This document shows positions 4,489 to 58,371 of a stretch of DNA of 64,000 bases, in pieces. Numbering within the stretch: position 1 is the first letter of the stretch; each line of letters starts with the position of its first letter. The DNA lies in the NCBI GenBank assembly GCA_964466035.1, contig CAYXLR010000006.1:28918-92917 (forward strand). The letters are read 5' to 3'. A model generated the notes under the pieces. The model searched no databases, was not told the DNA's origin, and saw nothing but the letters and a program-made list of their open reading frames with translations. Origin of the DNA: an uncultured Thermotogae bacterium. GTDB taxonomy: Bacteria; Bipolaricaulota; Bipolaricaulia; UBA7950; UBA9294. A program made the translations under genes and the position numbers.

Positions 4489-5133
4489 ATGTTGGCGCTG
4501 GGAGTCGATACATCCGAGCCGCTCGGCGGCGTCGCCCTCTACGACGGACGCGGCCTCGCCGACGAGCGCTGGATGGACGAGCCCCTACGTCATGCCGAGC
4601 GGCTGTTTCCGCTGATCGAGGGGGCCCTGAGGGGGAACGGCGTGAGCAGAGATCGAGTCGGGTCGGTGTGCGTCAACCTCGGCCCCGGATCGTTTACCGG
4701 TCTGCGGATCGGGCTCGCCGCGGCCAAGGGCTTCTGCCAGGCCGTCGGTGCCGCGCTGATCGGCGTCGACGGCGCGGACGCGTACCGAGCGCGGATCGCC
4801 GACGCGAAGCGGGTCTGCGTGATCGTGGCCAGTCGGCGCGACCTGTACTACGCGCAGTTCTTCAGCGGCGCGCGCCCGCGAGGACCGATGCGGCTGATCC
4901 GCGAATCGGAGCTTCTGGAGGCCTTGCGGGACGAGGAGCGAGAGGTGACCCTCGTCGGAAGCGGCGCCCCGAAGATCGGCGGCGCACTGCGGGGGCATCC
5001 GATGATTCGGATCGCTCCGGAGGAGGCGAATCGACCGTCTCCCCTGGCGATCGCCAAGCTGGGTTGGAACGAGGAACCGGCCGACCGGCTGTACGAGGTC
5101 GAGCCGTTATACGTAGAGCCCCTCCTCGCCTGA
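4489..5133 (+). CDS. tsaB: tRNA threonylcarbamoyladenosine biosynthesis protein TsaB
   Basis: MLALGVDTS, HAERLFPLI, GPGSFTGLRIG, EPLYV. Confidence 0.92.
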   Translation: MLALGVDTSEPLGGVALYDGRGLADERWMDEPLRHAERLFPLIEGALRGNGVSRDRVGSVCVNLGPGSFTGLRIGLAAAKGFCQAVGAALIGVDGADAYRARIADAKRVCVIVASRRDLYYAQFFSGARPRGPMRLIRESELLEALRDEEREVTLVGSGAPKIGGALRGHPMIRIAPEEANRPSPLAIAKLGWNEEPADRLYEVEPLYVEPLLA

Positions 5134-12653: not shown

Positions 12654-12774
12654 CCTCGATCCTTCCTCCCCCGCAGCCGCCGTCGCGTTGCCTCGGCCTC
12701 GACCGCTCGCATCGGCCGACTCTACGCGCGATCGGATCACAGGTCAATCCCTGTTGCATGGTCGGCTGTAACGC

Positions 12775-40788: not shown

Positions 40789-40805
40789 GGAGGAACGGGG
40801 AGACC

Positions 40806-42149: not shown

Positions 42150-42159
42150 CGGACGGCCT

Positions 42160-44109
42160 ATGGAGACGGGAACGGCCCGCGTCAGATTCCAACCGGAAGG
42201 GAAGACCGTCGAGGTGCGGCGAGGAACATCGCTCCTCGACGCGGCGCGCTCGGCCGGGGTGTTCGTCGCGTCGATCTGCGGCGGCGACGGGATCTGCGGA
42301 CGCTGTCGGGTGCAGATCCTCTCCGGCAAGGTCGACGCGGAACCGACCGCCCTGCTCACCCGTGAGGAGATCCGTGCGGGGTTCGTCCTCGCCTGCCAGA
42401 CGCGGGTCACGGAGGACGTGGACGTCACCGTGCCCCCGGAGTCTCGGGGCGACGGGGCTCAGATCCTCGTCGACGAGGACACCGATCGATTCCGCGCGCT
42501 GACCCCCGGGCTCGGGGCCGCCGAGGAGTACCCGTACGCCCCGGTCGTGTCGAAGCTGTGCGTGGAGCTCACGCCGCCGACGCTGCAGGACTACCTCGGC
42601 TGTCAGGAGCGGCTGTACCGGGAGATCCGGCGGCGCGTCGACGCGCCGAGGATGCAGATGGGGCTCAAGGTCCTCCAGTCGCTGCCGAAGCAGCATCGGG
42701 ACGGAGCCTGGCGGATCACCGCGACGCTCGGGGTCCGGGGGGACACGATCGAGGTGATCCAGATCGAGGAGGGGGACCGAACCGACGCCTCCTACGGGAT
42801 CGTCGTCGACGTCGGAACGTCGACGATCGTCGCCCATCTCGTCGACCTGCTCAGCTCGAAGACGCTCGACGCGGAGGCGTGCTACAACTCCCAGATTCCC
42901 TACGGCGCGGAAGTCACGCGCCGGATCATCCACGCCGAGCGGGAAGGCGCCGGGCCGCTGCGAGACGCCGTCGTCGGAGACATCAACAACCTGATCAACA
43001 CCCTTGCCACGCGGTGCAACGTCGAACTCCAAGACGTCATCGCCTGTTTCGCGTCCGGGAACACGACGATGCTGCATTTCCTGCTCGGGCTCGACGCGTC
43101 GCACATCCGGAAGTCGCCGTACGTTCCGACGACGACGAACCCGCCCCCCGTTCGCGCCGCGGAGGTGGGGATTCGGATCAACCCCCGCGGTATCCTGTAC
43201 ACGATGCCGGCGATCGGCGGCTGGGTCGGCGGCGATATCACCGCCGGGATCCTCGCCACCGGGCTGGCGGACGGGTCCCGTCTGACGATGCTGATCGACG
43301 TCGGCACGAACGGCGAGATCGTGCTCGGGAACGATGACTGGATGCTGGCGTGCGCCACGTCGGCCGGTCCGGCGTTCGAAGGAACCGGCGTCAAGTCGGG
43401 GATGCGGGCGTCCCGCGGGGCGATCGAGCGCGTCGCGTTCTCCGGCGGCGAATCGATCCACCTCGAGACCATCGGCAACGCACCCCCCCGCGGCATCTGC
43501 GGCTCGGGGTTGATCGACGCGATCGCCGGGCTGTTCGAGGTCGGAATCATCGATCGATCCGGACATCTCCTGATCGATCGCTCTTCCCGGGTCCGCGAGG
43601 TCGGCGGGCAGCTGGAGTTCGTCCTCGTGGCCGCCGGCGAGAGCGCCAACGGCGCGGACATCGTGATCACCCAACCGGACATCGAGAACGTCCTCCGGGC
43701 CAAGGCGGCGATCTACGCCGGGGCGAAGATCCTGCTTGAGTCGACCGATCACCGGTTCGAGGACATCGACCAACTGCTGATCGCCGGAGGATTCGGCAAC
43801 TACCTCGACGGCCGCAAGGCGGTGCTGCTCGGGATGATCCCCGACATCCCGGTCGAGCGGATTCACTTCGTCGGGAACACCTCGGTCGTCGGGGCGAAGA
43901 TGGCCTTGTTGTCCATTGACGCCCTGCGTCGCAGCGACGAGATCGCCGGGAGCGCTACGTACTACGACCTCATCACCTACCCTGACTACTACGAGGAATT
44001 CATGTCGGCGAAGTTCCTTCCGCACACCCACCTGGGGTTGTTCCCGTCGGTCGCGGACGTCCTCGCCACATCGACCCCCGCAGAGGATCGGACGAACCGA
44101 TGGGCCTGA
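42160..44109 (+). CDS. acsV: Corrinoid reductive activator (RACo/AcsV; [2Fe-2S] plus ASKHA DUF4445)
   Basis: CGGDGICGRC..LACQ, DVGTSTIV, SGNTTM, IDVGTNGEI, SAGPAFEG, GICGSG, AKAAI, AGGFG. Confidence 0.93.
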   Translation: METGTARVRFQPEGKTVEVRRGTSLLDAARSAGVFVASICGGDGICGRCRVQILSGKVDAEPTALLTREEIRAGFVLACQTRVTEDVDVTVPPESRGDGAQILVDEDTDRFRALTPGLGAAEEYPYAPVVSKLCVELTPPTLQDYLGCQERLYREIRRRVDAPRMQMGLKVLQSLPKQHRDGAWRITATLGVRGDTIEVIQIEEGDRTDASYGIVVDVGTSTIVAHLVDLLSSKTLDAEACYNSQIPYGAEVTRRIIHAEREGAGPLRDAVVGDINNLINTLATRCNVELQDVIACFASGNTTMLHFLLGLDASHIRKSPYVPTTTNPPPVRAAEVGIRINPRGILYTMPAIGGWVGGDITAGILATGLADGSRLTMLIDVGTNGEIVLGNDDWMLACATSAGPAFEGTGVKSGMRASRGAIERVAFSGGESIHLETIGNAPPRGICGSGLIDAIAGLFEVGIIDRSGHLLIDRSSRVREVGGQLEFVLVAAGESANGADIVITQPDIENVLRAKAAIYAGAKILLESTDHRFEDIDQLLIAGGFGNYLDGRKAVLLGMIPDIPVERIHFVGNTSVVGAKMALLSIDALRRSDEIAGSATYYDLITYPDYYEEFMSAKFLPHTHLGLFPSVADVLATSTPAEDRTNRWA

Positions 44110-44870
44110 CGATCGCGGTGGCCGGGAAGGGCGGGACGGGGAAGACGACCCTCTCCGCCTTGCTGATCCGCGGCCTGTGCGAGCGCGGGGTGACGCCCCT
44201 GTTGGCGGTCGACGCCGACCCGAACGCGAACCTCGGCGAGGCCCTCGGCCTGACGACCGATGTGTCGATCGGCCGCCTCCAAGCCGAGACGCTGAAGCGG
44301 ATTCACAGCCTCCCGGCCGGCGTCCCGCTCAGCCGGCATCTGGAGTACGAGCTCCATCAGGCGATCGCCGAAGGCGAGGGCGTCGACCTCCTGGTGATGG
44401 GACACGGCGAGGGACCCGGCTGTTACTGCGCCGTCAACCACATCCTGCGGTGCTACATCGAGTCGCTACGCTCGTCGTACCGCTGCACGATCCTCGACAA
44501 CGAGGCCGGGATGGAGCACCTGTCCCGGCGTGTCTCGCACGGGATCGATCTCCTGCTCGTCGTCTCCGACGCCAGCCCGACAGCTCTCCGTTCCGCTGGC
44601 CGGATCGCGGGCATCGCCGACGACCTCGAGCTGGAGATCGGCCAACGCTTCCTGGTGTTGACCAACCTGCGCGACGAGCTGAGCGACCGGGCGCGCGAGG
44701 AGATCGAGCGGATCGACCTGGAGATCCTCGGGAAGATCCCGTTCGACGAGGAGATGTACGAGCTGGCCCTCGCCGGCCGCCCAATCGCGGAGCTGTCCCC
44801 GGAGGCCGTTTCGCTCACCGAAGTGTCCGAGATGCTCGATACGCTGCTGCAGAAGGAGGCAATCGCGTGA
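44100..44870 (+). CDS. cooC: CooC/AcsF nickel-insertion ATPase (paralog 2)
   Basis: IAVAGKGGTGKTT, DADPNANL, EGPGCYC, DNEAGMEHLSR. Confidence 0.93.
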   Translation: MGLTIAVAGKGGTGKTTLSALLIRGLCERGVTPLLAVDADPNANLGEALGLTTDVSIGRLQAETLKRIHSLPAGVPLSRHLEYELHQAIAEGEGVDLLVMGHGEGPGCYCAVNHILRCYIESLRSSYRCTILDNEAGMEHLSRRVSHGIDLLLVVSDASPTALRSAGRIAGIADDLELEIGQRFLVLTNLRDELSDRAREEIERIDLEILGKIPFDEEMYELALAGRPIAELSPEAVSLTEVSEMLDTLLQKEAIA

Positions 44871-45847
44871 CCGTTGAGATTCCCGACGTCAAGAAGAGCT
44901 GGCCGCATGCGATCAACGCCGTGACGATCGGCGCCACGTCCGCCGACGGAGGGACGCGGACATCGACCGTCACCATCGGGGGCGAGACGACGCTTCCCTT
45001 CTACCTTTTCGAAGGGGCGATGCCCAACCGCCCGGTCGTGGCGATGGAGGTCTGGGACGTCCCGGCCGGGGATTGGCCCGACGCCGTCCGGGAGCCGTTC
45101 GACGACGTCCTCGCCGATCCCGCCGCGTGGGCGAAGAAGTGCGTCGACGAGTTCGGCGCCGAGACGATCTGCCTCCGCTTGCAAGGGTGCGACCCGAACG
45201 GCGCGAACCGGTCCCCCGAGGAGGCCGCCGCGGCGGCGAAGGCGGTCGCCGAGGCCGTCGGCGTCCCGTTGATCGTTTGGGGGTGCGGAAGCGACGAGAA
45301 GGACAACGAAGTCTTCCCGCTCGTCGCCGAGGCCCTCTCCGGGGAGAACTGCCTCCTCGGGACGATCACCGAGGACAACTACAAGACCCTCACCGCGCTC
45401 GGCACGGCGTACGGGCACAAGCTGATCGCGGAGTCGCCGGTCGACATCAACATGGCGAAGCAGATCAACATCCTCGCGCTTGACGTCGGCTTTCTGGCCG
45501 AGAACCTCGTGATCTTCCCGAGCACCGGCGCCCTCGGCTACGGGCTCGAGTACGTCTACTCGATCATGGAGCGGCTCCGGATCGCCGGACTGAAGGGCGA
45601 CAAGGTCGTGGCGATGCCGATGCTCTGCGACATCGGGCTGGAGGTATGGGGCGCCAAGGAGGCCCGGGCGCCGGAAAGCGAGGTCCCCGGCTGGGGCGAC
45701 GTGACGTCTCGCGGCCCCCTGTGGGAGGCGGCGACGGCGACCGTCTACCTGCTCGCCGGGGCCGATCTGTTGATCCTTCGCCATCCCGAGGCGGTGCGGC
45801 TCACCCAAGGGACGATCGCACGGCTGATGGGAGGTGAGGCCGGGTGA
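44867..45847 (+). CDS. acsD: Corrinoid iron-sulfur protein small subunit
   Basis: IGGETTLPFYLFEG, AMEVWD, SPVDINMAKQ, ALGYGLEY, MERLR, WEAATA; GTG 44867. Confidence 0.95.
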   Translation: MTVEIPDVKKSWPHAINAVTIGATSADGGTRTSTVTIGGETTLPFYLFEGAMPNRPVVAMEVWDVPAGDWPDAVREPFDDVLADPAAWAKKCVDEFGAETICLRLQGCDPNGANRSPEEAAAAAKAVAEAVGVPLIVWGCGSDEKDNEVFPLVAEALSGENCLLGTITEDNYKTLTALGTAYGHKLIAESPVDINMAKQINILALDVGFLAENLVIFPSTGALGYGLEYVYSIMERLRIAGLKGDKVVAMPMLCDIGLEVWGAKEARAPESEVPGWGDVTSRGPLWEAATATVYLLAGADLLILRHPEAVRLTQGTIARLMGGEAG

Positions 45848-46635
45848 TCCTCATCGGGGAGCGGATCAACGCCGGGTTCAAGGACATCGCGAACGCCATC
45901 CGGACCAAGGATCCGACCGCGGTGGAGAAGTGGGCGGTGGCGCAGACCGAGGCCGGCGCGACCTACCTCGACGTCAACATCGGGGCGGCGTCGCGCGATC
46001 CGGCGGACATGGCGTGGCTCGTCGATGTCGTCCAAAAGGCCGTGCCGACGAAGATCTCGGTCGACTCGACGAAGATCGAGACGATCGAGGCCGGTCTCGA
46101 CGCGATCGACGGCCGCGGCGTCCTGATCAACTCCACGACCGCCGATCCGGGGAAGCTGGAGCGGATCGTGCCGCTCGCGGTCGAGCACAACGCGGCGCTG
46201 CTCGGCCTCGCGATGGACGACCGCGGCAGCCCGCAGAACGTCGATCGTCGAGTGGAGAACGGGGCGATGGTGTTCATGGCGGCGATGGAGGCCGGACTCG
46301 ACCCGGACCGGATCGTCCTCGATCCGATCCTCATGCCGCTCAAGTTCATGCAGGAGCAGGCGGGGTTCGTTCTCGAGGCGATCGAGCAGTACACCCACCT
46401 CTCCGATCCGCCGCCGCACATCTCCGTCGGGCTGTCCAACATCGGGTCGAAGGCGACCGAGCGGAGGCGGATCGTCCGCACGTTCCTCGTCATGGCGATG
46501 GCCCGCGGACTGGACGTGGCGATCTGCAACGTCTGCGACGAAGAGCTGATCGCCGCGGTGGCGACGGCCGAACTGGTCCTGAACAAGGAGATCTACTCCG
46601 ATTCGTACGTGCGCGCCTTCCAGGTGCGGCAGTAA
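45844..46635 (+). CDS. acsE: Methyltetrahydrofolate:corrinoid methyltransferase
   Basis: LIGERIN, YLDVNIG, LINSTT, LDP, GLSNI; pterin-binding TIM barrel. Confidence 0.92.
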   Translation: MILIGERINAGFKDIANAIRTKDPTAVEKWAVAQTEAGATYLDVNIGAASRDPADMAWLVDVVQKAVPTKISVDSTKIETIEAGLDAIDGRGVLINSTTADPGKLERIVPLAVEHNAALLGLAMDDRGSPQNVDRRVENGAMVFMAAMEAGLDPDRIVLDPILMPLKFMQEQAGFVLEAIEQYTHLSDPPPHISVGLSNIGSKATERRRIVRTFLVMAMARGLDVAICNVCDEELIAAVATAELVLNKEIYSDSYVRAFQVRQ

Positions 46636-46656
46636 CGGCAGGAAGGAGGAGGAACC

Positions 46657-48552
46657 GTGGCGAACGAGAAACCGCGCAGCATCGACAGGGCGTCGCTCGA
46701 GGTCCTCGAGGCGGACGAGGGCGCACACGAGACCGCATGGGATCGCTTGGACGCGATGCAGCCCCAGTGCACCTTCGGAGCGCAGGGGGTCTGCTGCCGG
46801 ATCTGCAGCATGGGGCCGTGTCGGATCATCCCCGGGAAGACCGACCGCGGCGTCTGCGGCGCCAACGTCGACACGATCGCCGCGCGGAACCTGGTCCGAA
46901 TGATCGCCGGCGGCGCGGCCGCCCACTCCGATCACGGTCGCGACGTCGCCCACGCGCTCCTCCTCGCGGCGCGAGACGAGTCGTGCGACTACGGGATCAA
47001 CGATCCAGTGAAGCTCCGGCAGGTCGCGGCAGCCTACGGGATCGGCCAGAACGGCGCGTCGGACCGAGAGATCGCGGTCGCCGTCGCCGAGCGGGCGCTC
47101 GCCGACTTCGGCCAGCAGGAGGGGGAGCTCGAGCTCGCGTTCCGCGCGCCGGAGAAGCGGGTCAAGCGGTGGAAGGCCGCCGGCGTCGTCCCCCGCGGCG
47201 TCGATCGCGAGATCGTCGAGATCATGCACCGCACCCACATGGGCGTCGACGCCGACTACAAGAACCTCATGCAGCAGGGGATCCGCTGCTCGCTCTCCGA
47301 CGGATGGGGCGGCTCGATGATCGCCACCGAGCTGCAGGACGTCCTGTTCGGGACGCCCTCCCCGATCCGGGGGAAGGTCAACCTCGGTGTGCTCGACGAG
47401 AAGCAGGTCAACTTCGTCGTGCACGGTCACGAGCCGGTCCTCTCCGAGATGGCCGTCGCGGCGGCGCAGGATCCCGAACTCCTCAAGCTCGCCGCCGAAG
47501 CCGGGGCGACCGGGATCAACGTCTCGGGCATGTGCTGCACAGCCAACGAGATCCTGATGCGACACGGCGTGCCGATCGCCGGGAACTTCCTCCAGCAGGA
47601 GCTCGCGATCATGACCGGGGCGGTCGATCTGATGATGGTCGACGTGCAGTGCATCATGCCCGCCCTTGCCGACCTCGTGAATCACTATCACACGAAGCTC
47701 ATCACGACCTCGCCGAAGGCGAAGTTCCCGGGGGTCGAGCACGTCGAGTTCCACGAGGAGAGGGCGCTGGAGATCGCCAAGACGATCGTTCGCATGGCGA
47801 TCGAGAACTACGGCCGTCGGGACCGAAAGCCGTTCATCCCCGACGAGACGATGGATCTGATCGGAGGGTTCACCGCCGAGTCCGTGTTCTCCTTCCTCGG
47901 AGGGACCTATCGATCGACGTACCGCCCGCTCAACGACGCGATCATCGACGGCCGGCTCCGCGGAGCGGCCGGGGTCGTCGGCTGCAACAACCCGAAGATC
48001 ACCCACGACTGGGCCCACGTCGAGATGGCGAAGGAGCTGATCCGAAACGACGTGTTGGTCGTCACGACCGGCTGCTCGGCGATCGCCGACGCCAAGCAAG
48101 GTCTGATGCGCCCGGAGATCGCGTTCGAGCTGGCTGGCGACGGTCTGAAGGAGATCTGTGAAACGGTCGGCATTCCGCCGGTCCTGCACGTCGGCTCGTG
48201 CGTCGACAACGCGCGGATCCTCATGGTGCTGACGAACATGGTCCACGAAGGCGGGCTGGGCGAGGACATCTCCGATCTCCCGGTCGCCGGTGCGGCGCCG
48301 GAATGGATGAGCGAGAAGGCGGTTTCGATCGGCTTCTACTTCGTCTCGTCCGGCGTGTTCACGACGCTCGGGATGCCGTTCCCGATCGAGGGATCGGAGA
48401 ACCTGACGCGGTACGTCACCGACGAGATCGAGGCGGACGTCGGAGGCAAGTTCGCCTTCGAGCCGGACCCGATCGCGGCCGCGCGCCTGATGATCGACCA
48501 CATCGACGCGAAGCGGGCGGCGCTCAAGCTGAAGGAGGTCATGTACGCCTGA
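46657..48552 (+). CDS. cooS: Anaerobic Ni-dependent carbon monoxide dehydrogenase catalytic subunit
   Basis: CTFG..GVCCRICSMGPC, AHSDH, HGHEP, GMCCTANE, DVQC, VGCNNP, TGC, GSCVDN, EWMSEKA: all B, C and D cluster ligands visible. Confidence 0.97.
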   Translation: MANEKPRSIDRASLEVLEADEGAHETAWDRLDAMQPQCTFGAQGVCCRICSMGPCRIIPGKTDRGVCGANVDTIAARNLVRMIAGGAAAHSDHGRDVAHALLLAARDESCDYGINDPVKLRQVAAAYGIGQNGASDREIAVAVAERALADFGQQEGELELAFRAPEKRVKRWKAAGVVPRGVDREIVEIMHRTHMGVDADYKNLMQQGIRCSLSDGWGGSMIATELQDVLFGTPSPIRGKVNLGVLDEKQVNFVVHGHEPVLSEMAVAAAQDPELLKLAAEAGATGINVSGMCCTANEILMRHGVPIAGNFLQQELAIMTGAVDLMMVDVQCIMPALADLVNHYHTKLITTSPKAKFPGVEHVEFHEERALEIAKTIVRMAIENYGRRDRKPFIPDETMDLIGGFTAESVFSFLGGTYRSTYRPLNDAIIDGRLRGAAGVVGCNNPKITHDWAHVEMAKELIRNDVLVVTTGCSAIADAKQGLMRPEIAFELAGDGLKEICETVGIPPVLHVGSCVDNARILMVLTNMVHEGGLGEDISDLPVAGAAPEWMSEKAVSIGFYFVSSGVFTTLGMPFPIEGSENLTRYVTDEIEADVGGKFAFEPDPIAAARLMIDHIDAKRAALKLKEVMYA

Positions 48553-48611
48553 AGCCCGGCGGAGGCCGAGGACGGAAACAACCACCGATTACGAGGGAGT
48601 AAGGAGGCAGT

Positions 48612-50381
48612 GTGGCAGGGAGTGTCCCATCCGATCTTGACATCGCACAGGCGGCAAAGCCGAAGCCGATCACGCAGATCGCGGAGAACCTCGGCATCCT
48701 CGAGGACGAGCTCGACCCGCACGGCAAGCTGAAGGCGAAGGTGAAGCTGTCGATCCTCGACCGGCTCGCCGATCGACCGAACGCCAAGTACATCGACGTC
48801 ACCGCGATCACGCCGACGCCGCTCGGCGAGGGAAAGTCGACGACGATGGTCGGGCTGACGCAGGCGCTCGGCAGCGTGCTCGGCAAGAACGTCATGTGCT
48901 GCATCCGCCAGCCGAGCATGGGGCCGACGTTCAACATCAAGGGCGGCGCCGCCGGCGGCGGCTACTCCCAGGTCGTCCCGATGGAGGACTTCAACCTCCA
49001 CCTGACCGGCGACATCCACGCGATCTCCGTCGCGCACAACCTCGTCGCCGCGGCGCTCGACACCCGGATGTTCCACGAGTCACGTCAGAGCGACGAGGCG
49101 CTCGCCAAGCGCGGCGTGAAGCGGCTCGACATCGACCCGGAGACGATTACGTGGCGCCGGGTCGTCGACATCTGCGACCGCTCCCTGCGCGAGATCCAGG
49201 TCGGGTTCAACGACGACAAGCTGAAGGACGGCTCGCCGAGCCCGGTGTTCCCCCGGGTGACCGGCTTCGACATCACCGTTTCCTCCGAGATCATGGCGAT
49301 CCTCGCCCTCGCGACCTCGCTCGCGGACATGCGGGAGCGGTTCGGCCGGATGGTCGTCGGCCTCGACAGGAAGGGGAATCCGGTCCACGTCGAGCAGCTC
49401 GGCGCCGCGGGCGCGGTGACGGTCCTGATGAAGGAAGCCCTCATGCCGACGCTGATGCAGACGCTCGAGGGTCAGCCGGCGTTCGTCCACGCCGGGCCGT
49501 TCGCCAACATCGCCCACGGGAACAGCTCGATCGTCGCCGACAAGATCGCCGTGAAGCTCGCCGACTACGTCGTGACGGAAAGCGGGTTCGGCGCCGACAT
49601 CGGGATGGAGAAGTTCTTCGACATCAAGTGCCGCACCTCCGGGCTGATCCCGAACGCCGTCGTCCTCGTCGCGACCGTCCGCGCCCTCAAGATGCACGGC
49701 GGCGGGCCGGCCGTGAAGCCGGGCGCGCCGCTCGACGAGGCGTACACGCAGGAGAACCTGCCGCTGCTCGAGAAGGGGCTGTGCAACCTCGGCGCGCACA
49801 TCCAAAACGCGCTCAAGTTCGGCATCCCGGTCGTCGTCGCCGTCAACGCGTTCCACACCGACACGCCGGCCGAGCTGGAGAGGATCCGCGAGTACTCGGT
49901 CGCCCAGGGCGCCGAGGACTCGGTCGTCACGACCCACTGGGCCGACGGCGGAAAGGGCGCCGGGAAGCTCGCCGAGGCGGTCGTCGCCGCCTGCGAGAAG
50001 CCGTCGAACTTCGACTTCCTGTACCCGCTCGATTGGTCGATCAAGGAGAAGATCGAGAAGATCTCGACCGACATCTACGGCGCGGACGGCGTCTCGTACG
50101 AGCCGCTCGCCGAGAAGCAGATCGCCGACTACGAGCGCGCCGGCTTCGGGAACCTGCCGATCTGCATGGCGAAGACCCACCTCTCCCTGTCGCACGACCC
50201 GAACCTGAAGGGCCAGCCGACCGGCTTCACCGTGCCGGTCCGCGAGGTCCGCGCCTCGGTCGGCGCCGGCTTCATCTACCCGTTGATCGGAACGATGAGC
50301 ACGATGCCCGGGCTCGCCACCCACCCCGCGTTCATGAGCATCGACATCGACGAGAACGGCGAGATCACCGGCCTGTTCTAG
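48612..50381 (+). CDS. fhs: Formate--tetrahydrofolate ligase
   Basis: [60 protein letters not shown]. Confidence 0.97.
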
Positions 50382-50407
50382 GTGGCGAGCGGGAGAAGGG
50401 AGCGTCG

Positions 50408-50881
50408 GTGTCGGAGCAATGGCCGCGTGTGCTGCGTGAGGAGATCGAGGAGGCCGCAGGACGGCCCGAGCGACTGATCCATGTCCTGCGGCGCGTCCAG
50501 GAGACCGTCGGCTTCATCTCTCCCGAGTCGGAGGCCATCGTCGCCGAGCGGCTCGGCGTGAAGATCGCTCGCGTTCACGGTGTCGTGACGTTCTACCATC
50601 TGTTCTACACCTCACCGCGCGGTCGGCACACGGTTCGCGTCTGCCAAGGCACGGCGTGCCACGTTGGCGGCGGCGACCGGATCCTCCGGGCGATCGAGGA
50701 CCGACTCGGCGTCACGCCCGGAGAGACGACCGACGATCTTGCCGTCACCCTAGAGACGGTCGCCTGCCTCGGCGCCTGTGCGCTGGCTCCGGTGATGGTC
50801 GTCGACGACGTCTACCACGGCCTGTTGACGCCGGATGAAGCCGTGGCGATCGTCGATCAAACGCTCGAGGAGGACGGATGA
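50408..50881 (+). CDS. NuoE/HydC-like [2Fe-2S] subunit of the formate dehydrogenase complex
   Basis: LIHVL..VQE..GFI, VHGVVTFY, VCQGTACH..CLGACALAP; GTG 50408. Confidence 0.92.
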   Translation: MSEQWPRVLREEIEEAAGRPERLIHVLRRVQETVGFISPESEAIVAERLGVKIARVHGVVTFYHLFYTSPRGRHTVRVCQGTACHVGGGDRILRAIEDRLGVTPGETTDDLAVTLETVACLGACALAPVMVVDDVYHGLLTPDEAVAIVDQTLEEDG

Positions 50882-52749
50882 CCGGGCGGATCACGACCCG
50901 CGAGCAACTCGACGCGCTCAAAGCGTACAACCTCAAGCGGCTCGCCTCCGTTGAGCAGCGGATCGCTGTTTGCAACGGCACCGGCTGTCGGGCGTGCGGG
51001 GGAGTCGAGGTGAAGGACGCCTTGGTCGCCGCCGTTGCATCGCACGGGCTCTCCGACCGGGTCGCGGTGATGCCGACTGGCTGTCAGGGGTACTGCCAGC
51101 GCGGTCCGCTCGTCACCGTGGAGCCGGCCGGGATCTTCTACCACGGCGTCAAGCCTGCCGATGCCGAGCGAATCGTCGCCGCAACGATCGAGCGAGGAGA
51201 ACTCGTCGACGACCTGCTTCTCGCCGATCCGGTCACCGGCGAGCGGATCCCGCGCCGCGACGAGGTCCGCTTCTACACCGGGCAGCAGCGAATCGTCTTC
51301 GCGCTGAACGGGAAGATCGACCCGGTGTCCATCGGAGACTACATCGCCCACGACGGCTACCAGGCCCTGGCGAAGGCGCTTCTCGACATGGGTCCGGAAT
51401 CGATCGTCGACGAGGTCCTTCGGGCCGGGCTGCGCGGACGCGGCGGTGCCGGGTTCCCGACCGGCCGCAAGTGGAAGTTCACTCGGGACGCGCCGGGCGA
51501 CGTCAAGGTCGTCGTCTGCAATGCCGATGAGGGCGATCCGGGCGCGTTCATGGACCGCTCGCTGATCGAGGCGACACCCCACGCCGTGCTCGAAGGGATG
51601 TTAATCGCCGCCCACGCGATCGGCGCGAGCCAAGGCTACGTCTACGTCCGTGCCGAGTACCCGCTCGCCGTCAAACACATCCGCAAGGCGATCGACGACG
51701 CTCGCTCCCTCGGCCTTATCGGGAAAGGCATCTTCGGCACCGACTTCTCGATCGACATCCATGTCATGGAAGGGGCGGGCGCGTTCGTCTGCGGCGAGGA
51801 GACGGCCCTGCTCCAATCGATCGAGGGCAAGCGCGGCATGCCGCGACCCCGACCGCCGTTTCCGGCCCAGTCCGGCCTGTGGGGCCGGCCGACGAACCTC
51901 AACAACGTGGAGACGTACGCCAACGTCCCGCCGATCATTCTCCGCGGTGCCGAGTGGTACGCGGGAATCGGAACAGAGACGAGCAAGGGGACCAAGATCT
52001 TCTCCCTCACGGGGAAGGTAGCGAACAATGGGCTCGTCGAGGTGCCGATGGGGACGACGCTGCGGCACATCATCTACGAAGTCGGCGGCGGGATGCGCGA
52101 CGGCCGGGAGTTTAAAGCGGCGCAGCTCGGGGGGCCGTCCGGCGGCTGTCTGCCAGCCGATCTCCTCGACGTACCGATCGACTACGAGTCACTCGGCGAG
52201 CACGGAGCGATCATGGGGTCGGGCGGGGTGATCGTCCTCGACGACACCGCGTGCATGGTCAGCATCGCCCGCTTCTTCCTCGACTTCACCGCGAGCGAGT
52301 CGTGCGGGAAGTGCGTTCCGTGTCGCGTCGGGATCCCGACGATGCGCGACATCCTCGTCCGGATCACCGAGGGGGAGGGGGAACCGGAGGACCTCGACCG
52401 GCTGCGGGAGCTGGCCGAACTCGTGAAGTCGTCGGCGCTGTGCGGCCTCGGCCAGACGGCGCCGAACCCGGTCCTGTCGACCCTCCGCTACTTCGAGGAC
52501 GAGTATCGGGCGCACATCGAGGATCGGATCTGCCCGTCCGGCGTCTGCGAGGCGCTTGCCCCACCGTACCGGATCGATCCGGAGGCGTGCAAGGCGTGCG
52601 ACCAGTGCGCCAAGGTCTGTCCGACCGGTGCGGCGCGCGGCACGCCGGGCGAGCCGCCGTACGAGATCGACGAGCAGCTGTGCATCCGATGCGGCGCCTG
52701 CTACAAGGCCTGCCCGTTCGACGCCGTGACGAGGGGGGCCCGATCATGA
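50878..52749 (+). CDS. NuoF/HydB-like FMN/NAD-binding subunit with extra Fe-S domains
   Basis: N-terminal Trx-like [2Fe-2S] (CNGTGC..CQGYC), GLRGRGGAGFP, NADEGDPGAFMDR, GAFVCGEETAL, ESCGKCVPCR, LCGLG, C-terminal 2x[4Fe-4S]. Confidence 0.93.
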   Translation: MTGRITTREQLDALKAYNLKRLASVEQRIAVCNGTGCRACGGVEVKDALVAAVASHGLSDRVAVMPTGCQGYCQRGPLVTVEPAGIFYHGVKPADAERIVAATIERGELVDDLLLADPVTGERIPRRDEVRFYTGQQRIVFALNGKIDPVSIGDYIAHDGYQALAKALLDMGPESIVDEVLRAGLRGRGGAGFPTGRKWKFTRDAPGDVKVVVCNADEGDPGAFMDRSLIEATPHAVLEGMLIAAHAIGASQGYVYVRAEYPLAVKHIRKAIDDARSLGLIGKGIFGTDFSIDIHVMEGAGAFVCGEETALLQSIEGKRGMPRPRPPFPAQSGLWGRPTNLNNVETYANVPPIILRGAEWYAGIGTETSKGTKIFSLTGKVANNGLVEVPMGTTLRHIIYEVGGGMRDGREFKAAQLGGPSGGCLPADLLDVPIDYESLGEHGAIMGSGGVIVLDDTACMVSIARFFLDFTASESCGKCVPCRVGIPTMRDILVRITEGEGEPEDLDRLRELAELVKSSALCGLGQTAPNPVLSTLRYFEDEYRAHIEDRICPSGVCEALAPPYRIDPEACKACDQCAKVCPTGAARGTPGEPPYEIDEQLCIRCGACYKACPFDAVTRGARS

Positions 52750-55442
52750 CCGAAGGCGTTTCGATCACGATCGACGGCCGGCCCGTCGAGGCGCGGGCCG
52801 GGGAGACCGTCCTCGCCGTCGCCCGGCGGCACGGCATCGACATCCCCGGTCTCTGCTACCATCCGCGGCTGACGCCGACCGGCGGCTGCCGGCTCTGCCT
52901 CGTGAAGATCGACGGTCGGCCCGGGACGACGACCGCGTGCACGCTCGAGGCGACGGAGGGGCTGTCGATCACCGCGTTCGACGACGAGCTCGAGGCCGAG
53001 CGGCGCGGGCTGATCGAGCTCCTGCTCGCCGAGCACAACTGCGATTGCGTCGTCTGCGAGTCGGCCGGCCGCTGTGAGCTCCAGGACCTCGCCTACCGCT
53101 ACGGCCTCGACCAGCGAACGCGCCGATACCGGTTCCCGCCGCGCGATCTCCCCGACGAGGACGCCTCCTCGCCGGTCCTCGTGTACGACCCGAGCAAGTG
53201 CATCCTCTGCGAGCGGTGCGTCAAGGCGTGCGACGAGATCCAGGGGAAGGCGATCCTCTCCTACGCCTTCCGAGGACTCGACGCCGTCGTCACCGCCGGC
53301 CCGGGCGGCTGGGGCGCCTCCGATTGCGACGGCTGCGGCGAGTGCGTCCAGCTCTGCCCGACCGGGGCGATCCGCGAGAAGCTCGACGTCCGACCGCCGC
53401 GGCACTGGGAGCTGAGGCCGGTGCACACGACCTGCTCGTACTGCGGCGTCGGCTGCCGGCTCGACCTGTGGGTCCACGACGGACGGATCGTCAACGTCAC
53501 CGGCGCGGACGCGGTCCCCAACTTCGGCTCGACCTGCGTCAAGGGGCGGTTCGGCCACACGTACGTCCAGGCCGAGGACCGTCTGACCCGGCCGCTGATC
53601 CGGCGGGACGGCGCGCTCGTCGAGGCGACGTGGGACGAGGCGCTCGACGAGGTCGCCCGGCGGCTGAACGAGATCGTGGCCGAGCACGGACCCGACGCGA
53701 TCGGCGGCTTGTCTTCGGCGACGTGCACCAACGAGGAGAACTACCTGTTCCAGAAGCTCCTGCGCGCCTGCGTCGGGACGAACAACGTCGATCACTGCGC
53801 CCGCCTCTGCCACGCGTCGACCGTCGCCGGGCTCGCCGCCGCGTTCGGCTCCGGCGCGATGACGAACTCGATCGCCGAGCTAGAGTTCGCCGACTGCCTC
53901 CTCGTCACCGGCTCGAACACGACCGAGACCCACCCGGTCATCGCCAACCTGATCGTGCGGGCCGTCCGGTACCACAGCGCGAAGCTGATCGTCGTCGACC
54001 CCCGGCGGATCGACCTCGTCAAGCACGCGGCCCTCTGGCTGCGACAACGCAACGGCACCGACGTCGCCTGGATCAACGGGATGATGTCCGTCATCCTGTC
54101 GGAGGGGCTGCACGACGAAGCGTTCGTCGCCGAGCGCACCGAGGCGTTCGACGCGCTCCGCGCCGTTCTCGATCGCTTCACCGTCGACGACGCGGCGCGG
54201 ATCTCCGGCATCCCGTCCGAACAGCTCGCCGCGGCCGCCCGCATGTACGCCGGCGCCGAACGCGCTGCGATCGTCTACGCGATGGGGATCACCCAGCACA
54301 CGCACGGGACGGACAACGTCCTCTCGCTCGCCAACCTGGCGATGCTCACCGGGTCCGTCGGGAAACCATCGTCCGGCGTCAATCCGCTGCGCGGTCAGAA
54401 CAACGTGCAGGGCGCGTGCGACCTCGGCGCCCTCCCGAACGTCTACCCCGGGTACCAGCCGGTCACCGACCCCGACGTCCGGGCGAAGTTCGAGTCGGCG
54501 TGGGGCGTCGGCCTCCCGCCGGACGTAGGTCTCACGGTCGTCGAGATGATGCACGCGGCGGCCGATGGGCGCGTCAAAGGCATGATCATCATGGGCGAGA
54601 ACCCGATGATCTCCGACCCGAACCTGAACCACGTCGAGGAGGCTCTGAGGGCGCTCGACTTCCTCGTCGTGCAGGACGTCTTCCTCACCGAGACGGCGCA
54701 GCTCGCCGACGTCGTCCTCCCCGCCGCGTCGTTCGCCGAGACGAACGGGACGTTCACCAACACCGAGCGGCGCGTGCTGCCCGTCCGCCGGGCGATCGAC
54801 CCGCCCGGCGAGGCGCGGCCGGACTGGGAGATCCTGTGCGACCTGTCGACCCGCATGGGCTACCCGATGCGCTATCCCGACGCCGCGGCGATCATGGACG
54901 AGATCGCGTCGGTCTCGCCGATCTACGGCGGGATCCATCACCGCAGGCTCGAGCCGGCCGGCCTGCAATGGCCGTGCCCGTCCGACGACCACCCCGGAAC
55001 CGTCTTCCTCCACGAGGGGACGTTCCGCCGCGGGCTCGGCCGGTTCCACGCCGTCGAGTACACCCCGTCGGCCGAGCTCCCCGACGACGAGTACCCGTTC
55101 GTCCTGTCGACCGGCCGGATCCTCCAGCACTTCCACACCGGCTCGATGAGCCGCCGGTCCGGCGCGTTGAACGCCTACGGGAACGAGCCGTACGCCGAGA
55201 TCCATCCGGACGACCTCGCAACGCTCGGCGTCGAGGACGGGGGGAAGGTCCGCGTCGCGACGCGCCGCGGCGAGATCGTCACGAACGCCCGCGCGGCGGA
55301 GCGCGTCGCCCCCGGTTCGGTGTTCATCCCGTTTCACTTCGTCGAAGCCGCAGCGAACCGGTTGACCAACGACGCCCTCGACCCGAAGGCGAAGATCCCC
55401 GAGCTGAAGGTCGCCGCCTGCCGGATCGAACGGGTAGATTGA
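52746..55442 (+). CDS. fdhF: Mo/W formate dehydrogenase alpha subunit, Cys form, fused to HydA-like Fe-S domains
   Basis: [2Fe-2S], H-ligated and 2x[4Fe-4S] modules, then TCSYCGVGC..CVKG, DHCARLCHAST (Cys, not Sec), PLRGQNNVQG, IPELKVAAC; ATG 52746. Confidence 0.94.
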   Translation: MTEGVSITIDGRPVEARAGETVLAVARRHGIDIPGLCYHPRLTPTGGCRLCLVKIDGRPGTTTACTLEATEGLSITAFDDELEAERRGLIELLLAEHNCDCVVCESAGRCELQDLAYRYGLDQRTRRYRFPPRDLPDEDASSPVLVYDPSKCILCERCVKACDEIQGKAILSYAFRGLDAVVTAGPGGWGASDCDGCGECVQLCPTGAIREKLDVRPPRHWELRPVHTTCSYCGVGCRLDLWVHDGRIVNVTGADAVPNFGSTCVKGRFGHTYVQAEDRLTRPLIRRDGALVEATWDEALDEVARRLNEIVAEHGPDAIGGLSSATCTNEENYLFQKLLRACVGTNNVDHCARLCHASTVAGLAAAFGSGAMTNSIAELEFADCLLVTGSNTTETHPVIANLIVRAVRYHSAKLIVVDPRRIDLVKHAALWLRQRNGTDVAWINGMMSVILSEGLHDEAFVAERTEAFDALRAVLDRFTVDDAARISGIPSEQLAAAARMYAGAERAAIVYAMGITQHTHGTDNVLSLANLAMLTGSVGKPSSGVNPLRGQNNVQGACDLGALPNVYPGYQPVTDPDVRAKFESAWGVGLPPDVGLTVVEMMHAAADGRVKGMIIMGENPMISDPNLNHVEEALRALDFLVVQDVFLTETAQLADVVLPAASFAETNGTFTNTERRVLPVRRAIDPPGEARPDWEILCDLSTRMGYPMRYPDAAAIMDEIASVSPIYGGIHHRRLEPAGLQWPCPSDDHPGTVFLHEGTFRRGLGRFHAVEYTPSAELPDDEYPFVLSTGRILQHFHTGSMSRRSGALNAYGNEPYAEIHPDDLATLGVEDGGKVRVATRRGEIVTNARAAERVAPGSVFIPFHFVEAAANRLTNDALDPKAKIPELKVAACRIERVD

Positions 55443-55455: not shown

Positions 55456-55703
55456 TCACCGCAGAGGACGCAGAGAGACGCAGAGAGAAGCCCTGGGAAG
55501 AGGATCACCATGAAGGACATGAAGGGGAGAACCACACCCATCCTCTCGCAGAGGCGCGGAGAACGCTGAGAAAAGCTCAGGAGGGTTCTTCCCTCTCCCC
55601 TAGCGGGAGAGGGTCAGGGTGAGGAGGTCTGGCGACCTTCGGCGGCGAGTCATCATCTTCTATCCTCTTGTACGGTCAGATGCTGACTCTGCGCTCTCCG
55701 CGG
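55456..55703. repeat. Composite REP-like repeat, copy A (left boundary of the island)
   Basis: Modules CCGCAGAGGACGCAGAG, CACCATGAAGGACATGAAG, CGCAGAGGCGCGGAGAACGCTGAG, hairpin CCCTCTCCC-N5-GGGAGAGGG-TCAGGGTGAGG, and inverted arm CTCTGCGCTCTCCGCGG; collinear with copy B at offset 2629-2630. Confidence 0.9.
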
Positions 55704-55918
55704 ACATGCCGTTGCGTTATTCGCTCTCCATCGGCAGGATGGAAAGGGCGCAAGTCCGCAGTGCCGAGGGGATGAGTCGAGCGAGGGCACACGATCGGCA
55801 GCATTCGGTGGATGGGTCTCCAGCAGGGTAACCGACTGGCAGTGCGAGAACTTCTCTCTCCAGTAGCCACGGACTGTCCCTGGGAGCCGCAGACGAGCCG
55901 CGGCACGCTGTACTCCCC

Positions 55919-55947
55919 TTGACATAGAGGTTTTCTTCAGGTATTAT
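55919..55947 (+). promoter_or_regulatory. Strong sigma70-type promoter of the peptide/C39 cassette
   Basis: TTGACA-17 nt-TATTAT. Confidence 0.75.
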
Positions 55948-55973: not shown

Positions 55974-56348
55974 GTGATGCTCCGACTGCGGTTCATCCTT
56001 GTGTGTCTGTTGGTTTGTGCCTGTGCGATTCCGCTCAGGGTAGCCGCAACTTCTGATCCCGTCCTCGCGGGCGAGCCCTTCTCTGTGCCGCTGCCGGCCG
56101 GACGAGAGCTCGCCGACGATGAACTTCTCGAAGTCGAGGGAGAGCTCGTCTGGTTCGTCGGACTTCTCATCATCGCTGTCGCATCAGGAGTGGGTGCCGG
56201 AGGCGGTATGGCCGTCCATGAGAACTGGTTCGATGAGGACTACGGCATCGACGGCGACGATTGGGGAAACATAGGACTGGTTGCGGGCTGCACCTTCGGC
56301 GGAGTCTTGACTGGTGGCATTGCCACACACTACGTCGGGCCGATGTAG
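55974..56348 (+). CDS. Secreted peptide precursor: signal peptide, double-glycine-like leader and Gly-rich hydrophobic core
   Basis: MLRLRFILVCLLVCACAIPLRVAA signal; ELADDELLEVEG(E) leader-like motif; core with GxxxG helices flanking an Asp-rich loop. Confidence 0.7.
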   Translation: MMLRLRFILVCLLVCACAIPLRVAATSDPVLAGEPFSVPLPAGRELADDELLEVEGELVWFVGLLIIAVASGVGAGGGMAVHENWFDEDYGIDGDDWGNIGLVAGCTFGGVLTGGIATHYVGPM

Positions 56349-56376
56349 GCTGCCGCTGCTCCTACCTTCAGACACC

Positions 56377-56610
56377 ATGGCTGATAGGAGAACACGCTTC
56401 CAACCAGGGCTGACTTCCATCTTCTCATTCGTGATCGTGGCATTCGTTTTGCCCGGAGTGTACGGTGCAATCACTGGCTCTGCTCCGCCCGCTCCGTGGC
56501 AGATGGGATCATGGGCAATCTGGATTGCATTCTGCGTGGGAGTCTTTCTGTTCGGATACGCCGTGACCAAGGTAGTACTGCGCTTGCTGGAGCGGAGGGA
56601 GCACCGATAG
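56377..56610 (+). CDS. Small two-TM membrane protein (77 aa), possible immunity or accessory factor
   Basis: Two hydrophobic segments with basic termini; lies between the precursor and the peptidase in the same orientation. Confidence 0.55.
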   Translation: MADRRTRFQPGLTSIFSFVIVAFVLPGVYGAITGSAPPAPWQMGSWAIWIAFCVGVFLFGYAVTKVVLRLLERREHR

Positions 56611-56644
56611 GTACACACCCCAGAGCGGCAATTGCTAGATAGAG

Positions 56645-57328
56645 ATGACAGCCGGAATGCGGCGGATCGCCGAGAAGGCGCAGTGGTTTCTCTGTCTTGC
56701 TGTTGTCGGTTTTGCCGGCTGCATACTACAGCATCCACAGGCTTCGGGGTCGAATGCCGCAGTGTCATTCCGCGACTTGAGGTATCAAGGCGCTATCGCG
56801 CAAACCAGCGACTACTCCTGCGGAGCGGCGGCCACGGCTTGCCTCCTCGACACGTACTATGGGATCCCCACAACGGAGGCCGAGATTCTTGAGCTGGCAG
56901 AGCGGCAGATGTCTGCTCGCGGCGAGGAGTCAGGGCTTGCGCATGGTCTCACGGCCTACGATCTGAAGACCGCATCCGAAGCTCTGGGCCTCGACATGGC
57001 AGGATACGAGCTCACACACGCTCAGCTACAGGACTACTTCGAGCGAGGCGGTCTACCCTTGATCGCACACGTGACCCAGCCGCGAGCACACTACCTTGTC
57101 GTAGTTGGGATGACCACTCAGCATGTCCTGCTATCGGATCCCGCATGGGGGCGCTACGTCGCGCCTGCACGTGAGCTCGCTGATGCCCGTGGCATGAGTG
57201 GCGTGTTCCTTGTTCCCCTGCCGACCATGGAGGAGGCTCTACACGCGCGGGGGATCCAGGCATCTGCTCTGGAATGGATGCGAAATCGAGTCCTCCAGTT
57301 GTCGGATCTACGCGAGGCCATGCTGTGA
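56645..57328 (+). CDS. Stand-alone secreted C39 cysteine peptidase (FapD-like)
   Basis: Hydrophobic N-terminal signal; SFRDLRYQGAIAQTSDYSCGAAA (Q, C), PLIAHV..AHYLVV (H), LLSDPAWG (D); no ABC or TM domains. Confidence 0.88.
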   Translation: MTAGMRRIAEKAQWFLCLAVVGFAGCILQHPQASGSNAAVSFRDLRYQGAIAQTSDYSCGAAATACLLDTYYGIPTTEAEILELAERQMSARGEESGLAHGLTAYDLKTASEALGLDMAGYELTHAQLQDYFERGGLPLIAHVTQPRAHYLVVVGMTTQHVLLSDPAWGRYVAPARELADARGMSGVFLVPLPTMEEALHARGIQASALEWMRNRVLQLSDLREAML

Positions 57329-58107
57329 GAGCCGCCGTCCTTCTCCTCCTGATAGGTCTGTCTTGGTTCGTGGTGGGAGGTGCTCAGACGCCAGCATTCG
57401 ATCCCCTCCGCCTCGCAGAAGACACCAACGAAGCACAGATCTCGTGGGACGTATCGCTGGCGTACCACCCACAAGGAAGCACCGGGGCTGGGTATGATGA
57501 CCTCGGTCAGTTCTACACGTTTGTGAGATTCATTGATCAATGGCAGTCGAGCGTTTCGATGTCCTGGTCCTTCAGCCCGTGCCACAAGCTGGGAACGGCT
57601 CTGACCCAGAGCACTACCACCCTCTACGAACGACGCCTGTACGAGTCATCCGAGTCGGAGGAAACGTATACCAGCAGAGACTTCTCGTACTCAAGCTACT
57701 ACGAGTATCGCATCGCCCCGGACAGCCCGCTCGATCCTCGTCTCCGCCTGTCATATCGATCCCCTTCGTGGTTTGGACTTGCTGCATCCGTCAGCCGGAT
57801 ACTTGATCCTGTGGTTCTGACGGCAATGGTCGGGTTTTTGCACAAGCATCAAAGACCACTCAACTGGGTCGACCTCTCGCTGAGTGCAGGATTGGTTGCA
57901 AACTCCAGAGTGACCTTCACTGTGTCCAGTGGAATGGCCGTTCCAGTACAGGATGCCGGTCTGCCGTCTGCATCGGTCGGTCTCTGCGCTCGCTACTCGC
58001 GCAATCCAAGTGGAGGTCTCCAGCTCTCTGTGCAGGCCACCCTGCACATGCAAGGGCAGTCCTCCTGGATCGCTCCGTCATTGTCGATCCGAGGGCGGCA
58101 TCCCTAG
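57325..58107 (+). CDS. Putative outer-membrane beta-barrel transporter (FapF-like)
   Basis: GTG overlaps the peptidase stop; signal peptide; alternating amphipathic strands rich in S/T/Y/W; SRILDPVVL..VGF and LSAGLVANSRVTF resemble FapF DPxVL and G-x-x-N strand motifs. Confidence 0.55.
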   Translation: MRAAVLLLLIGLSWFVVGGAQTPAFDPLRLAEDTNEAQISWDVSLAYHPQGSTGAGYDDLGQFYTFVRFIDQWQSSVSMSWSFSPCHKLGTALTQSTTTLYERRLYESSESEETYTSRDFSYSSYYEYRIAPDSPLDPRLRLSYRSPSWFGLAASVSRILDPVVLTAMVGFLHKHQRPLNWVDLSLSAGLVANSRVTFTVSSGMAVPVQDAGLPSASVGLCARYSRNPSGGLQLSVQATLHMQGQSSWIAPSLSIRGRHP

Positions 58108-58125
58108 AGAGGAACTCAGAGACCT

Positions 58126-58332
58126 CCACCATGAAGACCATCAAGGTCACGAAGAGGAAGACCAACCCCATTCTCGCGCAGAGGCGCGGAGAACGCTGAG
58201 AAAAGCTCAGAACGGTTCTGCCCTCTCCCCTGGTGGGAGAGGGTCAGGGTGAGGGGAGGAATCCTTCGACATCGAGGTGGCTTTCCCCGTATTCTCTTGT
58301 ACAGTCAGATGCTGACTCCGTGCTCTCTGTGG
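58126..58332. repeat. Composite REP-like repeat, copy B (right boundary of the island)
   Basis: 58177-58210 is identical to 55547-55580 (34 nt); 58294-58318 matches 55665-55689 at 24/25; same CCCTCTCCC/GGGAGAGGG hairpin. Confidence 0.9.
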
Positions 58333-58371
58333 CCCAGCGAGAGAAAGGACTTCGGCGTCTGGGAGGCTGAG

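Follow-up and report, generated by a model that had tools for sequence, protein, structure and literature searches.

A four-gene cassette pairing a stand-alone C39 peptidase with a FapF-like outer-membrane barrel in Bipolaricaulota: a candidate peptide export unit

Introduction

How might a C39 cysteine peptidase contribute to peptide export when no ATP-binding cassette (ABC) transporter is attached to it or encoded beside it? The question is raised by four genes at positions 55974-58107 of a 64,000-nt stretch of contig CAYXLR010000006.1 from an uncultured bacterium, the whole of which is referred to here as the window. A first-pass annotation, made from the sequence alone, proposed a hybrid route in which Sec moves a peptide with a double-glycine leader to the periplasm, a secreted C39 peptidase removes the leader there and a FapF-like outer-membrane channel exports the product. 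Two systems provide the background. In the Fap system, export through FapF cannot proceed without the periplasmic FapD, the target of which is still unknown (PMC5557850). The Neisseria nap island encodes the GG-motif peptides NapABC, an immunity-like protein NapI, a stand-alone C39 peptidase NapP and a FapF homologue NapF (PMC11798529). Our analysis supports the proposed hybrid route, and none of the three outcomes which that annotation named as refuting it was encountered. Our judgement is evenly balanced on the fuller interpretation, in which the four genes form a self-contained, mobile FapD/FapF-type, Nap-like peptide export unit with a bacteriocin-like core and g2 providing immunity.

Results and Discussion

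Organization of the locus

Four open reading frames (ORFs) lie on the same strand between fdhA, encoding formate dehydrogenase (52746-55442), and fdhD, which begins at ~58357, at the coordinates given by the first-pass annotation.

55919-55947, + strand: sigma-70-type promoter TTGACA-17-TATTAT, matching 11 of 12 consensus positions
55974-56348, + strand: g1, precursor, 124 aa
56377-56610, + strand: g2, inner-membrane protein with two transmembrane segments, 77 aa, candidate immunity/accessory protein
56645-57328, + strand: g3, stand-alone C39 cysteine peptidase, FapD-like, 227 aa, identified by Pfam, fold and catalytic residues
57325-58107, + strand: g4, 12-strand outer-membrane beta-barrel, 260 aa, remote homologue of the FapF barrel

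The listed ORF of g2 opens at 56314 and the ATG at 56377, which agrees with homologues, was taken as its start; an alternative g3 start at 56657 gives a 223-aa form, and the GTG start of g4 overlaps the g3 stop as GTGA. The promoter pattern was observed at 2 sites against 0.5 expected in shuffles, its position is kept in four other cassettes, and TTGACAT and the -10 element are preserved in three related loci (L004, L097 and L014). Pairwise comparison with three to four related cassettes gives each gene a ratio of nonsynonymous to synonymous substitution rates (dN/dS) of 0.13-0.57, and all four are therefore real protein genes under purifying selection. GC content falls from ~0.70 in the flanks to 0.57-0.62 within the cassette, and an Rfam scan of the window gave no match. 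Thus, ORFs, promoter and selection all agree with the earlier description of four co-oriented genes behind one promoter.

The peptidase and the barrel

g3 matches the Pfam Peptidase_C39 domain (PF03412) with an E value of 1e-17 and 64.7 bits against a cutoff of 22, and contains no other domain. The oxyanion residue Gln53, together with Cys59, His149 and Asp165, is invariant in 28 homologues, and the His/Asp region aligns with LahT150 (6mpz). The AlphaFold2 (AF2) model, with a predicted local distance difference test score (pLDDT) of 92, starts with a hydrophobic helix (residues 3-32), joined by a short disordered linker to the papain-like core, and ends in a long conserved C-terminal helix (195-226). 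Its top matches in the PDB are the peptidase domains of PCAT1, ComA and LahT150, with template modelling scores (TM-scores) of 0.78-0.86 on the target and a root mean square deviation of ~2 A. Among NCBIfam models the best matches, to FapD, an NHLP-type peptidase-containing ABC transporter (PCAT) and FilB, are weak and all far under their cutoffs, FapD being the best at 41.7 bits against the equivalog cutoff of 330 (NF058616). A crude analysis of the N-termini of g3 homologues found in every one a basic n-region together with a hydrophobic h-region and candidate cleavage sites at small residues. Whether helix 3-32 is cleaved or serves as an anchor, the catalytic domain of g3 would face the periplasm. 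The intact Q-C-H-D catalytic set, the lack of transporter domains and a signal-like N-terminus are all as the first-pass annotation described them, and the N-terminus is conserved in kind across homologues. Assignment of g3 as a lipoprotein was considered and rejected, the Cys of the N-terminal helix not being positionally conserved.

g4 begins with a signal peptide (approximately residues 1-20), followed by the conserved motif FDPLRLAED before strand 1, and its AF2 model (pLDDT 82, predicted TM-score 0.70) shows the signal helix and 12 strands. In a fold search of the PDB the twelve best matches are all FapF chains (5o65/5o67/5o68; best E 7.6e-10, TM-scores 0.67/0.59), far ahead of autotransporter, FadL and OmpG barrels. 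Sequence similarity is more distant. g4 itself matches no Pfam or NCBIfam model, including the NCBIfam FapF model, and a narrow profile of 27 close relatives (A2) did not match FapF by sequence; a broadened profile of 78 diverse members (A6) matches FapF with an E value of 3.9e-9, aligning the family motifs DPVVL.G and G.GFVAN.R opposite FDPAVLFGS and GVAFALNER of FapF. One family member matches the NCBIfam FapF model and distant members carry OMP_b-brl. The best fold match and the profile match thus both identify g4 as a remote homologue of the FapF barrel, in accordance with the signal-bearing barrel originally suggested. The family is small, with only 31 relatives in a set of 5.8 billion proteins and 118 representative clusters recovered by exhaustive profile search, and the barrel alignment had no match in a genome set with one member per GTDB species. 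g4 has no FapF-type N-terminal coiled-coil, only ~17 residues separating the signal peptide from strand 1; its cyanobacterial relatives carry a C-terminal Asn/Ser-rich low-complexity linker and coiled-coil.

Conservation of gene order and a natural fusion

The four-gene order recurs in at least 10 other metagenomic loci, in diverse settings.

L001-L003 and L102: cassette at the fdhA-fdhD site, as in the window
L004: cassette after the FTHFS gene
L100: cassette after mobA
L097: cassette after a MatE gene
L007/L008: cassette beside an IS200-type transposase
L014: cassette in another context

A three-gene version comprising precursor, C39 peptidase and barrel is present in two cyanobacterial metagenome-assembled genomes (L005 4900-9080 and L012 3460-7128), where it adjoins a divergently transcribed gene for a STAND-type NTPase (HTH_VMAP-M9 / NB-ARC) amid toxin-antitoxin genes. 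In addition, a search of representative sequences recovered a 493-aa protein, P0327, in which one signal peptide precedes a C39 domain (53-195) and a barrel (256-486) with no second signal. In this Rosetta-stone fusion the peptidase comes to lie at the periplasmic face of the channel, and the architecture supports a physical coupling of cleavage to outer-membrane passage. Chance adjacency is excluded because gene order is conserved and a natural C39-barrel fusion exists. The expectation that homologues of these genes co-occur elsewhere is realized in these loci, the cyanobacterial C39 and barrel genes being accompanied by one for a leader-bearing precursor. The absence of an ABC transporter extends to all of these loci: no ABC exporter is adjacent to the cassette in any of them, and the large ORFs of the window contain no PCAT or ABC exporter domains, the only ABC genes among them being those of a maltose-type importer.

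A related pair is also found in another setting. On a 668-kb contig (L095, 5657-9742) genes for a distant C39 peptidase (P0065) and for a member of the barrel family (hhalign probability 99.8%) directly follow BY-kinase and Wzz/GNVR co-polymerase genes, which suggests that exopolysaccharide loci too make use of this export pair.

Tandem Sec-type signal and C39-type leader in the precursor

The N-terminus of g1 is a Sec-type signal (approximately residues 1-25) with a candidate cleavage site between VAA and TSD. It is followed by a variable stretch, the leader motif PLPAGRELADDELLEVEGE, which runs to residue 57 (nt 56144), a 24-residue hydrophobic segment, the acidic loop HENWFDEDYGIDGDDW and a Gly-rich tail. 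The core of 67 aa (nt 56145-56345) is acidic, with an isoelectric point (pI) of 4.05, as well as Gly-rich and hydrophobic, and its acidic loop is invariant. The cyanobacterial precursor also bears a signal peptide once the correct upstream ATG is used.

The leader, of the form ...PLPxGRELxDxELLxVEGE, ends in an invariant Gly-Glu, or Gly-Asp in one lineage, and the pattern (V/I)PLPxG(R/Q/S)(E/Q)(L/M)xDxELLxVEG(E/D) is retained in 11 precursors from two phyla. The textbook double-glycine leader is LSxxELxxIxGG (PMC5557850), and the cyanobacterial form LSTQELEKVEGE is this sequence with Glu replacing the last Gly; g1 fits the same pattern at L(-12), E(-8), L(-7), V(-4) and G(-2). Thus, the double-glycine leader assigned by the first-pass annotation stands as regards the consensus but not as regards its terminus, which is Gly-Glu or Gly-Asp instead of Gly-Gly.

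Downstream of VEG(E/D), the predicted cores are 66-67 aa with a pI of ~4.05 in Bipolaricaulota and 73-75 aa with a pI of ~10 and two Cys in cyanobacteria, Gly content ranging from 14 to 24%. At 66-75 aa, and ~7 kDa in g1, these putative cores are within class II microcin size. Conservation of the leader together with a changeable core would match the pattern of bacteriocin and ribosomally synthesized and post-translationally modified peptide (RiPP) precursors. Compared with class II microcins, which are unmodified peptides below 10 kDa with a cleavable N-terminal leader and a neighbouring immunity gene, g1 has a predicted ~7-kDa Gly-rich core, a leader-like motif and a gene for a protein with two transmembrane segments next to it, without a family match; neither g1 nor g2 matches any Pfam or NCBIfam family or contains repeats.

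Cleavage at VEGE could also release a different product. In such an arrangement g1 would be a resident inner-membrane protein and the N-terminal pro-peptide freed by C39, not the core, would be exported, for example as a signalling peptide. The VEGE site does abut a segment of transmembrane grade, and C39 peptidases also mature signalling peptides, as in the case of ComA, whose domain is among the best fold matches of g3. The stretch between signal peptide and leader motif, however, is poorly conserved and varies from ~15 to ~95 residues. The core, by contrast, is well conserved and evolves under purifying selection. We consider export of the N-terminal fragment very unlikely and return to the core as the probable cargo.

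The small membrane protein g2

g2 is predicted to form a hairpin of two transmembrane segments with basic termini. It is the fastest-diverging of the four proteins, with 26-41% identity where the C39 peptidase keeps 52-65%, and has the highest dN/dS. Rapid divergence of this kind resembles that of immunity proteins, and g2 is accordingly a candidate immunity/accessory protein.

A variant array is present in L009 (2885-5591) and L010 (1-1928), in which a longer leader-bearing precursor is followed by two core-domain paralogues, each trailed by a g2-like gene for a protein with two transmembrane segments. In L009 the C39 gene is cut to a C-terminal fragment (4426-4695), and the barrel is intact. 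The repeated pairs of core-domain and g2-like genes would correspond to the layout of polymorphic toxin-immunity arrays.

The cassette is mobile and bracketed by direct repeats

An empty fdhA-fdhD site exists in a relative whose FdhA is 96% identical over the C-terminal 299 residues. Synteny with this relative is lost at position 55486 of the window and regained at 58383, and empty sites were located at L099 1001-1205 and L104 866-1116. The FTHFS contig of one relative stops short of the insertion site. Presence/absence polymorphism, low GC content and varied insertion sites together indicate that the cassette is horizontally mobile. Direct repeats of 185-420 nt bracket it at three unrelated sites, with within-pair identities of 79-95%.

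Window, 55490-55705: left direct-repeat copy, ~215 nt, fdhA-fdhD intergenic sequence, with a hairpin at 55591-55613
Window, 58120-58335: right direct-repeat copy, with a hairpin at 58221-58243; fdhD is next
L004, 2294-2714 and 5140-5434: direct repeats, the right copy being a truncated FTHFS 3' end
L097, 6939-7123 and 9583-9767: direct repeats

The two copies in the window, the only ones it contains, are ~79-87% identical. The bracketing repeats of the three loci share no sequence and are therefore not terminal repeats borne by the element. Alignment of the left ends of five cassettes revealed no conserved terminus except the promoter. No recombinase is encoded inside the cassette, and searches of plasmids and viral contigs gave no cassette match. 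Repeats of the type observed would result if a circular DNA, bearing the cassette together with a homologous flank of a diverged donor, were to integrate by a Campbell-type single crossover.

The hairpin in each repeat copy has a perfect 9-bp stem, CCCTCTCCC-loop-GGGAGAGGG, with no T-run, and is probably the fdhA terminator, reused after g4. The intergenic DNA at the repeats also contains many GCAGAG-type inverted repeats. In one lineage only, an IS200/IS605-type Y1 transposase gene lies immediately 3' of the cassette (L007, 2212-3075).

Proposed export pathway and its alternatives

In the pathway that we propose, all four genes would be transcribed from the TTGACA-17-TATTAT promoter and the g1 precursor would pass through the inner membrane via Sec, with removal of its signal peptide. 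Periplasmic g3 would then recognise the amphipathic leader and cut at or next to VEGE, and this cut would be coupled to movement of the 67-residue core across the outer membrane by way of the FapF-like barrel g4. The g3-g4 pair would thus act as an outer-membrane analogue of a PCAT, the peptidase seated on the transporter. The exported core would most likely be a bacteriocin- or microcin-like membrane-active peptide, from which g2 would shield the inner membrane of the producer as an immunity protein.

Several observations weigh against this interpretation. The core opens with a 24-residue hydrophobic segment of transmembrane grade (Kyte-Doolittle value 2.2), which, while in transit through Sec, could become lodged in the inner membrane and not reach the outer one. 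A free periplasmic intermediate is less certain because of this segment, and the possibility that this first core helix never leaves the inner membrane is the main weakness of the export interpretation. Conservation of the acidic loop HENWFDEDYGID exceeds what is usual in a diversifying toxin, g1 and g2 match none of the bacteriocin or immunity families in Pfam and NCBIfam, the cyanobacterial loci have no annotated g2 equivalent, and no precursor is evident at the distant C39-barrel pair beside exopolysaccharide genes. C39 peptidases cleave after leaders ending in Gly-Gly, or in Gly-Ala/Ser, and no characterised member is known to cut after one ending in G-E or G-D.

Some of these observations would fit a structural cargo. 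The Gly/Ala-rich core could be a small functional-amyloid or surface-coat subunit which leaves by the FapD/FapF-like pair and assembles outside the cell into a minimal Fap-like matrix or fibre, with g2 acting in assembly or regulation and not in immunity. Hydrophobic, Gly/Ala-rich segments such as GLLIIAVASGVGAGGGMAV of the core are typical of amyloid-forming peptides. A strongly conserved acidic loop would suit a structural protein, and the distant pair adjoins BY-kinase and Wzz exopolysaccharide genes. Furthermore, amyloid subunits are the sole characterised cargo of FapF (PMC5557850). However, the cassette encodes no imperfect-repeat proteins like FapB/C/E, and it is mobile, strain-variable and missing in a close relative. 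Cores are also radically unlike between clades while the leader is retained, and genes for a core and a protein with two transmembrane segments occur as tandem pairs in L009. Combined, these points make a fibre or coat subunit unlikely, and the bacteriocin-like core continues to be preferred.

Toxicity could alternatively be directed at the producer itself, in programmed death, autolysis or phage defence. Leader and g2 would keep the pro-peptide inactive at the inner membrane until the C39 cut frees a depolarising hairpin, with the barrel serving release or sensing. The nap island is reported to promote autolysis, not killing of competitors (PMC11798529), the first helix of the g1 core, of transmembrane grade, directly follows the cleavage motif, and the cyanobacterial loci lie beside a STAND-type NTPase amid toxin-antitoxin genes. 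This proposal does not agree with the tight association of C39 with an outer-membrane barrel, including the fusion, which points to export and not to activation at the inner membrane. In addition, the PADLOC defence models gave no matches and the Bipolaricaulota cassette contains no sensor or regulator. A self-directed toxin is, in our estimation, quite improbable.

Relation to known systems

The cassette resembles the Fap system in that a stand-alone C39 peptidase, exported by Sec, is paired with an outer-membrane barrel of 12 strands and no ABC transporter takes part in either. It differs in having no FapA/B/C/E genes or amyloid-repeat cargo, only g1 and g2 accompanying the peptidase-barrel pair. 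FapF has an N-terminal coiled-coil which is absent from g4, g3 scores far below the FapD equivalog cutoff and g4 does not match the FapF model. The substrate of the cassette is explicit, a single small precursor with a C39-type leader, and the hosts are Bipolaricaulota and cyanobacteria in contrast to the Proteobacteria of Fap. Because FapA/B/C/E are absent, the equivalog scores lie under their cutoffs and the barrel lacks the coiled-coil, the cassette is not a Fap locus, which upholds the earlier statement that it is not a canonical one.

The nap island, as described in the original paper, matches the cassette in architecture. Both are small, low-GC and horizontally acquired, with leader-bearing short peptides, a small immunity-like protein, a stand-alone C39 peptidase and a FapF-related channel in the absence of an ABC exporter, and the mechanism proposed for Nap, periplasmic cleavage followed by export through the barrel, is the same (PMC11798529). 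However, the Nap peptides are cationic, 16-36 aa in length and have GG motifs; no Sec signal is mentioned for them, and a holin was proposed to carry them over the inner membrane (PMC11798529). The cassette precursor has a Sec signal and a G-E leader in tandem with a core of 67 aa that is anionic and hydrophobic, and the cassette is compact, its four genes forming one operon.

The C39 fold and catalytic set are shared with the PCATs of class II microcin and bacteriocin systems (CvaB, PCAT1, ComA, LahT). Leader hydrophobic residues at -4/-7/-12, Gly at -2, a Gly-rich core below 10 kDa and an adjacent gene for a small membrane immunity-like protein are further likenesses. In a PCAT, C39 is fused to ABC transmembrane and ATPase domains, with a membrane fusion protein (MFP)/TolC; g3, by contrast, is unfused to an ABC transporter and would face the periplasm, its substrate has a Sec signal and Glu/Asp at -1, and export would go by the barrel and not by an MFP/TolC conduit.

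A search of the literature for general peptide export by Sec, periplasmic C39 and a FapF-like channel found only Fap and Nap, and one on FilB turned up nothing of use. The idea is less new than the first-pass annotation assumed because the nap island already pairs GG peptides, a stand-alone C39 peptidase and a FapF homologue (PMC11798529). What is new is the tandem arrangement of Sec signal and C39-type leader, a leader that invariably ends in Gly-Glu/Asp, a compact mobile format of four genes, a naturally occurring fusion of peptidase and barrel, and the occurrence in Bipolaricaulota and cyanobacteria. How the nap peptides cross the inner membrane is unknown, and the cassette offers the simplest version of such a system found so far. 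It has a single precursor with an evident, conserved motif and a single peptidase, barrel and small membrane protein, and a relative holds the natural fusion. Three questions thereby become testable in a four-gene construct: the target of the peptidase, the coupling of cleavage to passage and the driving force of an export that uses no ATP. FapF-type export would no longer be confined to Proteobacteria but would reach phyla whose outer membranes are unusual, and Bipolaricaulota gains a candidate family of peptide toxins; our literature search found one pure culture reported for this phylum.

More broadly, C39 and a FapF-like barrel may constitute a general ATP-independent outer-membrane secretion system for peptides, a "PCAT of the outer membrane", in which secretion is coupled to cleavage and a Gly-Glu/Asp leader code is placed behind a Sec signal. 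It would operate in atypical diderms (Bipolaricaulota and cyanobacteria) and spread as a recombinase-less cassette leaving long diverged target duplications. We advance this generalization tentatively and regard it as possible, although on the doubtful side.

Host and genomic context

The window RuvB is 79-81% identical to Candidatus Bipolaricaulota proteins, and the host is a member of Bipolaricaulota, an atypical diderm. This phylum is reported to have a toga-like outer membrane and no lipopolysaccharide genes (PMC6092417; bioRxiv 10.1101/2025.11.21.689855). The best matches of the window FdhA are 63% identical and from several phyla, and are thus uninformative for taxonomy. The maltose-binding protein of the window has a signal peptide without Cys, consistent with the earlier remark that a non-lipoprotein MalE fits a periplasm. 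Two ORFs at 10749-12740 (- strand) and 13989-16100 (+ strand), of 663 and 703 aa, have coding-like GC content at third codon positions and no Pfam match at an E value of 1e-5. From 38569 to 55442 the window carries a complete-looking Wood-Ljungdahl/formate block encoding ACS/CODH beta, CdhD, RACo, CooS, FTHFS, a NuoF-like subunit and FdhA, followed by FdhD/MobA, and the cassette insertions after FTHFS, fdhA and mobA in relatives all fall within this block.

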